Shown here in pieces: positions 37,745 to 40,401 of a stretch of 64,000 bases of DNA; position 1 is the stretch's first letter; each line of letters begins with the position of its first letter. Source of the DNA: Escherichia phage JEP8. Below the pieces are notes generated by a model that did not search any database, was not told the DNA's origin, and saw only the letters and a list, made by a program, of their open reading frames with translations. The translations under genes and the position numbers were made by a program. The stretch lies in sequence record MT764208.1; one strand, given 5' to 3'.

Positions 37745-38221
37745 TTATTTTTCTTGATGCTCGCGCTCGTACTTTTCGAAATAAAATTCTACTGGCTGGT
37801 CATGAATTGACAGCAAGCCAAAGCGTTTAGCCGCTCGCAATCCCATATTGCGCTGAATGTACTTCTGGAAGTTCTCGCGTATACACTTACGCCAGTATTC
37901 TAAGCCCATACAGCTTTTATAAAGATTGCATTGCACACACGCCGGATTCATGTTATCAAGTATATCATGCTCCGGTTTATGCATTCCTACGACCTTATAC
38001 TTCCACAATCCATCATCATTACGGGCAATTCGTCCATTTTCATCATAGACTACCTTTGAGCGTCGCAATACTGGTTTGATGTGGTCTGCGTGCCAGCGAT
38101 CCCCTAGTTCCTCGCCACAATAGGCACAACGTCCACCGTATTTCATTTTCAGGATCTGGCGTTGCTCTTTCTTTGACAATTTTTTAGGTTTAGGGGCTTT
38201 CGCCCCTTCATTATCACACAT
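37745..38221 (-). mobile_element. free-standing HNH endonuclease (putative homing endonuclease) gene
   Basis: 158 aa; HNH signature …GRCAYCGEEL…WHADHIKPV…DNMNPACVQCN…; sits between DNA ligase and the hyperplastic small-gene region. Confidence 0.7.
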
Positions 38222-39710
38222 CGAATACCTCTTTTACTGTATTTGCAGTGGTCTTGTCGTAGCGAATACGTTTGATGATTGGGAGAAATAAAGAGAACTC
38301 CGGTTCATCTTCTTTACGTGATTTGCTGCGAATGTACCCGTTGCATGTCATCTCAATGACTTTTCCAATCAGGTTATGACGGTCAGCCCATAACATTTCT
38401 CGGTCGAGTTCATTTCGACTATCGAACGGAATTACACGTTCGATACCATCATCACCTTTTTCGGTTGTGGTGTCGGTCAATCCCGATCCGGTGTTAGTCA
38501 TCATTCGTCCGCACGCACTACGGACAGTAAAACCGCCTACCTTATTAGGATCTTTACTATGCGGATATACATCAACAATTTCCGCGTCGAAGTCAATCAC
38601 TTCTTTAAATTTAACCTGATCTTTACTGCGACGATCTTCAAATACACCATGCAGATTTTTAAGGATAATACCTTCTAATCCCATGTTTACATAGCGATGA
38701 TATACTTCGCGAGCTTCATCGAGATTGTTAACTACGGTATTTTCGATTATCTGAACACGAGGATCGTTAAGTTCTTCAACAATCTGTTTTAGTTCTTCGA
38801 ATCGATCTTTATACTGCTTCGTTGCTTTCTCGTTACCGTAGTACACATCACGGTCGATAACATCCCAGACAGTGTAAACAATACATTGGGCTTCTTCTTT
38901 TGGAATAGTTCCTTTCAGTGATTTGTTGAGGATACCATTTCCGGTCTGACGATCTGCAACAACGGATTCTTTCACTGCTTCCGCTACTGGCGTTAATGGC
39001 ATTTCCTCTTCTTCAAATATCCATGACAGAGTACCATCATAAACGCTCTCAACGAAGTTCTGCGCTGGTGTTTGCGAAAGGGTAGGCATATATACCAATT
39101 CGCCATCTAGAACAATTCCACGGCCTCGTAGACGCTCTAAAACCGCAAACAAATCATCAAGCCCTTGATAGGTATTACCTGAGCGGGTATAGATTGCTAA
39201 TGTTTCCCCGTCAATATCAGCCATACCACGAGCGCCATCGCTTTTAAGTTGTGCATACGCCGGATACTTGATATTAGCAATAGTCTTATCAGAACATGAC
39301 GATGCAAGGTGGCACGGTTGCTGAGGGATCAGTTTCTTCCATACCTTGTTTGCAGTGGTAGCGGAACAGCCGCATTCCAGATCACGATTCAGGACCATCA
39401 TTGCAACTTTAGCATCATCCTCTGACAAGCAAGTCAGAGTATCGGTAACTAGTTGTAATGCTGCATTACCAGTTACTTGACGCGTGGCAAGTTTATTTTT
39501 AAAGACCTGTAATGCACCGGATAAAGACAATACAGACGAATAGCGAGATGGTTTATCGTATTTCTTTACGCCAAACGTAACCTGTTTGCAATATGCCAGA
39601 TAAAAGCATTCTTTCAGCGTTTCATTGCTCGCGGATTCTTTCAGAATCTTTTCTTTCAGCGATGTTTTGTCTGTTGCTGCAAGCTGATTAATGATATTAA
39701 GAATTGACAT
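38214..39710 (-). CDS. 30: ATP-dependent DNA ligase (gp30-like)
   Basis: start placed at ATG after GAGGTG; adenylation motif KSDGARG and colinear similarity to T4 DNA ligase. Confidence 0.93.
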   Translation of the reverse strand: MSILNIINQLAATDKTSLKEKILKESASNETLKECFYLAYCKQVTFGVKKYDKPSRYSSVLSLSGALQVFKNKLATRQVTGNAALQLVTDTLTCLSEDDAKVAMMVLNRDLECGCSATTANKVWKKLIPQQPCHLASSCSDKTIANIKYPAYAQLKSDGARGMADIDGETLAIYTRSGNTYQGLDDLFAVLERLRGRGIVLDGELVYMPTLSQTPAQNFVESVYDGTLSWIFEEEEMPLTPVAEAVKESVVADRQTGNGILNKSLKGTIPKEEAQCIVYTVWDVIDRDVYYGNEKATKQYKDRFEELKQIVEELNDPRVQIIENTVVNNLDEAREVYHRYVNMGLEGIILKNLHGVFEDRRSKDQVKFKEVIDFDAEIVDVYPHSKDPNKVGGFTVRSACGRMMTNTGSGLTDTTTEKGDDGIERVIPFDSRNELDREMLWADRHNLIGKVIEMTCNGYIRSKSRKEDEPEFSLFLPIIKRIRYDKTTANTVKEVFDV

Positions 39711-40176
39711 TTTCACCTCGTTTTGTTAAACGTTCACGAATATCATTGAGGATACTACAAAATTCCGATTCAGTCAATATAGTCTTTAACGGATCAGTTC
39801 CACCTATACTATGACGCAATTTCTTATTTCCGGTAGCGAGTAATGCTTTACAAAATTCTGGGTTATTCCGTGCCATCGTAACAAATGCCAGATGTACCAG
39901 TCTGTAATAATGCTCACTCATTCGATGAATCGGGCGACCCTGAAAATATAACATGTGATTCTCTATCTTTTCGGTCCTTCCGGTTCTTTTTGCTTTGCCA
40001 CCGTGCATCAAAAAGATTTCTCTTTGTCTCTGAGGGTTCTTAAATCTTAGCCCCTGTAAAAATCCTTCTGTGCTGTTAATATCGCAACCAAATAGACGGA
40101 ATGGTCTTTTATTGAAATTACTCAATTCACCCGATGGATAAGGTCCACCCGCATAGATATCAATTTCAGAAGTCAT
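39697..40176 (-). CDS. NADAR-domain (YbiA-like, DUF1768) protein
   Basis: 159 aa; …GELSNFNKRPFRLFGCDINSTEGFLQGLRFK… fits the NADAR signature; coordinates from ORF track. Confidence 0.6.
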   Translation of the reverse strand: MTSEIDIYAGGPYPSGELSNFNKRPFRLFGCDINSTEGFLQGLRFKNPQRQREIFLMHGGKAKRTGRTEKIENHMLYFQGRPIHRMSEHYYRLVHLAFVTMARNNPEFCKALLATGNKKLRHSIGGTDPLKTILTESEFCSILNDIRERLTKRGENVNS

Positions 40177-40371
40177 TGAAACTAATCTCGCTAATCAGAG
40201 AGAACGGATCATAATCGTCACTAGGAATATCGATAGTAATCGAGTGAGGGTTTACCCATACACCAAACTGGTCTTCTTCGGTGAATACTTCGGTATGGAT
40301 TTCGTGGATGTTTACATTCATAGTTTTCATAATAAAATTCCTTAATAATCAATAACTTACAAAATCATATA

Positions 40372-40401
40372 GCCAAAATATAGGCGGGATTATTACCCGC
40401 C
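40372..40401 (-). terminator. rho-independent terminator (minus strand) after gene 31
   Basis: GGCGGG…CCCGCC hairpin followed on minus-strand RNA by UAUAUUUU. Confidence 0.5.

Follow-up and report, generated by a model that had tools for sequence, protein, structure and literature searches.

Gene 30.3 of Escherichia phage JEP8 encodes a small, single-domain NADAR protein that is probably an antidefense enzyme; it lies within the 64,000-nucleotide stretch of the phage genome analyzed here (sequence record MT764208.1; hereinafter, the window). The gene is the Krischvirus ortholog of T4 gene 30.3, whose product, gp30.3, has been renamed AdfN, for anti-DarT factor NADAR (PMC11825919). With a probability that we put at roughly 0.8, it does the same job, i.e., it serves as an ADP-ribosylglycohydrolase that acts against DarT1. 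This estimate is based on orthology, fold, conserved residues, and selection. A sequence-only reading of the window, made without database searches, had correctly identified a NADAR protein, which turns out to be an RB49/Phi1-type copy of T4 30.3. Its further proposal, that the protein removes ADP-ribose from guanine and is a candidate counter to DarT-type enzymes, gains support from the orthology with the characterized T4 AdfN, from membership in PF08010, and from the retained residues E37 and H122.

The protein, of 159 amino acids (aa), matches the Pfam family PF08010 (Phage_30_3) over 137 of 138 model positions (132.5 bits against a cutoff of 36; E value, 1.2e-38) as well as phrog_652 (E value, 2.5e-45), the PHROG family to which T4 gp30.3 also belongs. 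In a pairwise comparison, it is 38% identical to T4 gp30.3 over 151 aligned residues (E value, 2e-30). An AlphaFold2 model built from a 12-sequence alignment (mean predicted local distance difference test score [pLDDT], 94.3; predicted template modeling score [pTM], 0.89) has the YbiA/NADAR fold, its closest matches being E. coli YbiA (2b3w; score, 12.1), a Phytophthora NADAR protein with ADP-ribose (8bau; 12.0), and the Geobacter lovleyi DarG1 NADAR protein (8bat; 9.9), followed by an unrelated structure at 4.1. Furthermore, a profile of 87 family members finds YbiA in the PDB (E value, 3.3e-4), and its hhalign comparison with E. coli YbiA gives a probability of 95.5% over 130 columns (E value, 1.5e-8). 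When family members were searched individually, 22 of the 87 matched the Pfam NADAR family at an E value of ≤0.01 (best, 1.1e-6), and the supplement of Schuller et al. 2023 lists a 40% identical homolog, phiM12 YP_009143184, by name under “Phage NADARs.” The NADAR/YbiA-like domain proposed from the sequence was thus borne out.

The signature residues of the family are present in the 30.3 protein. The proposed motif GELSNF occupies residues 16 to 21, and STEGFLQGLRF at residues 35 to 45 fits the pattern S.E.F.QG.RF. Across the family, L18, S19, and N20 show little or no variation, and the LSNF motif aligns with FSNF of YbiA. The 30.3 protein retains these three residues as well as Q41, G125, T135, and E138, each of which is shared by more than 90% of family domains. 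E37 is invariant in the three family alignments (A1, A2, and A3), and replacement of its T4 equivalent (E36A) impairs AdfN-T4 (PMC11825919). The column of H122 has His in 160 of 167 family domains and is aligned to the Glu of “VEHT” in YbiA; this last-strand residue is His in phage NADARs, Glu in YbiA-type proteins, and Asp in DarG1-type proteins (PMC11543638, PMC11125620). The C-terminal helix is full length, without a frameshift or an early stop codon, and the protein extends beyond the end of T4 gp30.3. In the 30.3 allele of RB69, an early stop codon truncates this helix, which goes together with sensitivity to DarTG1, RB69 being the sole DarTG1-sensitive phage in that study (PMC11825919).

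The function of the T4 protein is well documented. Purified AdfN-T4 strips ADP-ribose from DarT1-modified DNA, T4 without 30.3 is sensitive to DarTG1, and expression of AdfN rescues RB69 on DarTG1 hosts (PMC11825919). AdfN-T4 neither binds DarT1 nor has an effect against DarTG2. In an independent in vitro study, T4 gp30.3 hydrolyzed ADP-ribosylated guanine but not ADP-ribosylated thymine, and in a transposon screen, insertions in 30.3 were lost on DarTG1 hosts only. By orthology, the JEP8 30.3 product, a minimal single-domain NADAR-fold protein, would be an ADP-ribosylglycohydrolase; given the gene overlap, it probably shares a transcript with the DNA ligase. During infection, it would most likely cut the N-glycosidic bond between ADP-ribose and guanine N2 in phage DNA; removal of the ADP-ribose would undo the modification made by host DarT1, and replication could then proceed in DarTG1-carrying E. 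coli.

The comparison with known systems places 30.3 beside T4 AdfN. The two proteins share their Pfam and PHROG families, their length class (152 aa in T4), 38% identity from end to end, a bare NADAR core without extensions, the catalytic Glu (E36 in T4), the last-strand His (H123 in T4), and an intact C-terminal helix, and the genes share the neighborhood alt ... 30 ... 30.3 ... 31 ... cd. DarG1, the NADAR antitoxin of DarTG1 (BC4488 family; represented by the G. lovleyi protein in 8bat and by that of E. coli C7), differs in having Asp in place of the His, extra N-terminal elements (219 aa versus 159 aa), and a gene that adjoins DarT1. The neighbors of 30.3 are the ligase gene and a 54-aa open reading frame (ORF), and no DarT gene adjoins it between 36 and 44 kb of the window or in the surrounding 26 kb of the Phi1 annotation. 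E. coli YbiA and the Phytophthora NADAR protein (PF08719) carry Glu in the last strand, whereas the 30.3 protein carries H122; the annotation of YbiA is that of an N-glycosidase acting on riboflavin intermediates, and the enzyme gives no protection against DarT1 in cells.

Gene 30.3 is a genuine gene under purifying selection and not a chance ORF. The ratio of nonsynonymous to synonymous substitution rates (dN/dS) is 0.075 and 0.104 against two Krischvirus relatives and 0.124 against a 69% identical metagenomic relative that has the same gene order. Nucleotide identity over the 2 kb around 30.3 reaches 99.3% with Escherichia phage Phi1 and 98.5% with RB49, and the protein is 100% identical to RB49 gp30.3 in GenBank. 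Homologs were found in 1509 phage records by tblastn; most of these records label them “hypothetical protein.” A word-index search gave only 13 proteins, and the size of the family became visible only when 1.84 billion cluster representatives were searched exhaustively with HMMER (973 matches at an E value of ≤1e-3 and 432 at ≤1e-10).

Not all homologs share the T4-type context or the single-domain architecture. In two T4-like phages, Klebsiella phage vB_KpnM_TU02 (L007, 3001-3450) and Aeromonas phage AS4 (L008, 3001-3450), the gp30.3 homolog lies within the tRNA gene cluster, flanked by tRNA genes on either side, and is near neither the ligase gene nor alt. Many metagenomic family members are much longer (250 to 540 aa), the gp30.3 domain sitting at one end or the other, and several have two matched stretches, which points to fused and tandem NADAR architectures in this branch (long members: P0019, P0021, P0024, P0039, P0058, P0061, P0069, P0076, P0117, and P0135).

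Several points weigh against the proposed function. (i) The single 30.3 sequence misses the gathering score of the Pfam NADAR family PF08719 (15.5 versus 35.1 bits; E value, 0.021) and also falls far below the threshold of the NCBIfam model “NADAR family anti-phage protein”; the superfamily link was therefore made through structure and profile-profile comparison. Of the profile comparisons, a kind of check that the sequence-only reading had suggested, those with PF08010 and YbiA turned out in its favor and that with PF08719 did not. (ii) AdfN-T4 is fully effective only in T-even infection, which suggests a phage cofactor, whereas Krischvirus lies outside Tevenvirinae (the Phi1 lineage names the genus Krischvirus and the family Straboviridae but no subfamily) and has no 30.1 or 30.2 between 30 and 30.3. 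(iii) Hydrolysis of ADP-ribosylated guanine in DNA and protection against DarTG1 have been demonstrated for T4 AdfN, AdfN-Bas32, and AdfN-Bas60 only (PMC11825919, PMC11125620), and our survey of the literature and its supplements returned no test of gp30.3 from RB49, Phi1, or any Krischvirus and no link between RB49 or Krischvirus and DarTG. (iv) The phosphate-binding Lys, which is important in T4 AdfN (K43) and in E. coli C7 DarG1 (K95), is replaced by a conservative Arg (R44), and the corresponding change in the DarG1 protein, K95R, keeps hydrolysis of ADP-ribosylated guanine in vitro but loses the rescue of cells from DarT1 (PMC11543638). Our confidence is held back by the Arg, by the T-even dependence, and by the lack of a Krischvirus protein assay in the literature; nevertheless, the T4 activity most likely carries over to the 38% identical, Arg-bearing protein.

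The R44 position leads to the alternative that survives best, which we consider unlikely. The activity of the R44 lineage could be altered or weakened: hydrolysis of base-linked ADP-ribose could be inefficient in vivo, or the lineage could have moved to another substrate, such as ADP-ribosylated guanine in RNA or the product of another host ADP-ribosyltransferase. The Lys replacement itself and the behavior of K95R speak for this, as does the finding that NADARs, including that of T4, also act on ADP-ribosylated guanine in RNA (PMC12945103). However, an Arg is still able to bind phosphate, K43A causes only a partial loss of function in AdfN-T4, the gene is under purifying selection, and Arg recurs in several independent lineages whose signature is otherwise intact. 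Among the 167 aligned family domains, this column has Lys in 150 and Arg in 11, so that Lys is common but not universal and R44 does not exclude 30.3 from the family. On a neighbor-joining tree, the column needs at least seven changes, and sequences with Arg have Lys-bearing nearest neighbors in several places, indicating that Arg arose repeatedly. Arg is also present in the T4-like Acinetobacter phage MD-2021a, and the nearest Lys-bearing relative of the 30.3 protein is 62% identical to it.

It is conceivable, though doubtful, that the Lys-to-Arg change, which Krischvirus shares with some T4-like Acinetobacter phages and which has arisen several times elsewhere, sets apart a sub-branch of phage NADARs with a function of its own. 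If so, these proteins might have a different substrate range or dispense with the putative T-even cofactor that limits AdfN-T4, and this would help to explain the mismatch between in vitro activity and in vivo protection among NADARs. The natural Arg-for-Lys variant offers a cheap experiment on why in vitro NADAR activity fails to predict protection of cells.

From comparative genomics, Iyer, Burroughs, Anantharaman, and Aravind proposed that phage NADARs break down NAD-derived immune signals or soluble derivatives of ADP-ribose (PMC9503650). Some homologs lie in tRNA clusters at a distance from replication genes, which would fit such a role. That this, rather than the repair of DNA adducts, is the main task of the 30.3 protein is very unlikely: the proposal is older than the experiments, in which AdfN-T4 acts on ADP-ribosylated DNA, the sole known phenotype of AdfN-T4 is against DarTG1, and no NAD-salvage genes adjoin 30.3 among the ORFs of the window or in the Phi1 annotation.

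The sequence-only reading had additionally regarded the NADAR protein as a functional counterpart of two ADP-ribosyltransferases encoded at 27 to 30 kb. Both transferases do exist; each matches the exoenzyme family PF03496 and an Alt-like PHROG. Transferases of this kind modify protein arginines. Many T4-like phages carry alt and 30.3 within one early-gene region, and the two are co-expressed as early genes (PMC9503650). Nevertheless, it is highly improbable that the 30.3 protein undoes or adjusts ADP-ribosylation by the phage's own transferases: reported NADAR activities concern base N-glycosidic linkages, and none on the protein-arginine linkage is described in the literature surveyed; alt is separated from 30.3 by about 10 kb, with over 25 genes between them in the Phi1 annotation; and homologs occur in phages with very different local contexts. 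The common neighborhood is conserved T4-type synteny.

The phage NADAR gp30.3 family, its fold, its chemistry, and its anti-DarTG1 role were already published between 2023 and 2025, and the exact JEP8 sequence was already in GenBank under RB49, so that there is no novelty of kind. The gain is one of annotation: gp30.3 records can be named AdfN-like NADAR ADP-ribosylglycohydrolase.

Table 1. Gene 30.3, its key residues, and other features of the window
Feature	Position	Strand	Basis
Gene 30.3 (adfN ortholog), single-domain phage NADAR, 159 aa	39697..40176	minus	ORF list
LSNF motif, residues 18-21, N-terminal NADAR signature	40114..40125	minus	alignments
E37, equivalent of T4 AdfN catalytic E36 and YbiA E48	40066..40068	minus	alignments
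R44, phosphate-binding Lys position (T4 K43, YbiA K55, E. coli C7 DarG1 K95)	40045..40047	minus	
H122, phage-NADAR histidine in last strand	39811..39813	minus	alignments
C-terminal helix, residues 136-157	39706..39771	minus	AlphaFold2 model
Gene 30, ATP-dependent DNA ligase, directly downstream of 30.3	38214..39710	minus	PF01068, Phi1 annotation
54-aa ORF (Phi1 ORF215), upstream of 30.3	40166..40330	minus	phrog_15277
Candidate terminator-like GC hairpin with T-run	40383..40401	minus	consensus match only
HNH/endonuclease VII-like ORF, 158 aa	37745-38221	minus	PF01844; phrog_2118, E value 7e-55
Alt, full-length ADP-ribosyltransferase, 683 aa	27895-29946		PF03496, Alt-like PHROG
Second, short Alt-like ADP-ribosyltransferase, 274 aa	26993-27817	minus	PF03496, E value 4e-16; phrog_15144
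GmrSD_N domain protein (DUF262, ParB-like), 190 aa	30547-31119	minus	PF03235, E value 8e-20

The 30.3 ORF comprises 159 codons, with its ATG at 40176 and its stop codon ending at 39697, exactly as delimited in the sequence-only reading, which had also placed it next to DNA ligase; indeed, it abuts gene 30 (PF01068; E value, 4.8e-22). Its last 14 nucleotides overlap the start of gene 30 (the annotated Phi1 ATG corresponds to window position 39710), and the ribosome-binding site of gene 30, GAGG, sits within the 3′ end of 30.3. This direct overlap, which differs from the arrangement in T4, is due to the absence of 30.1 and 30.2. Upstream, the counterpart of Phi1 ORF215 overlaps the first 11 nucleotides of 30.3, and the same arrangement exists in the 69% identical metagenomic relative (L011, 4847-5011). 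The close packing and overlap of these genes suggest that 30.3 and the ligase gene are co-transcribed and translationally coupled. The candidate terminator would divide gene 31 from the three-gene block ORF215-30.3-30; a search for a sigma-70-like promoter of this block gave no match that rose clear of the shuffled background (10 matches versus 11.3 expected). JEP8, a Krischvirus, further differs from T4 in lacking an internal 30.3′ ORF and in its upstream small ORF, which is unrelated to 30.4. This 54-aa ORF was considered as a diverged T4 30.4 and rejected for want of similarity to T4 gp30.4, and it matched no family of known function.

Among the other genes of the window, the HNH/endonuclease VII-like ORF comes immediately after the ligase gene, overlaps its 3′ end by 8 nucleotides, and may encode a homing endonuclease. 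The 190-aa protein consists of the GmrSD_N domain alone; it lacks the nuclease half that GmrSD restriction enzymes carry at the C terminus. Finally, the short Alt-like gene lies directly downstream of alt, and the motifs FKN[FY]VSTS...FGGW...ECE[IV][IL]LPRG are common to both products.
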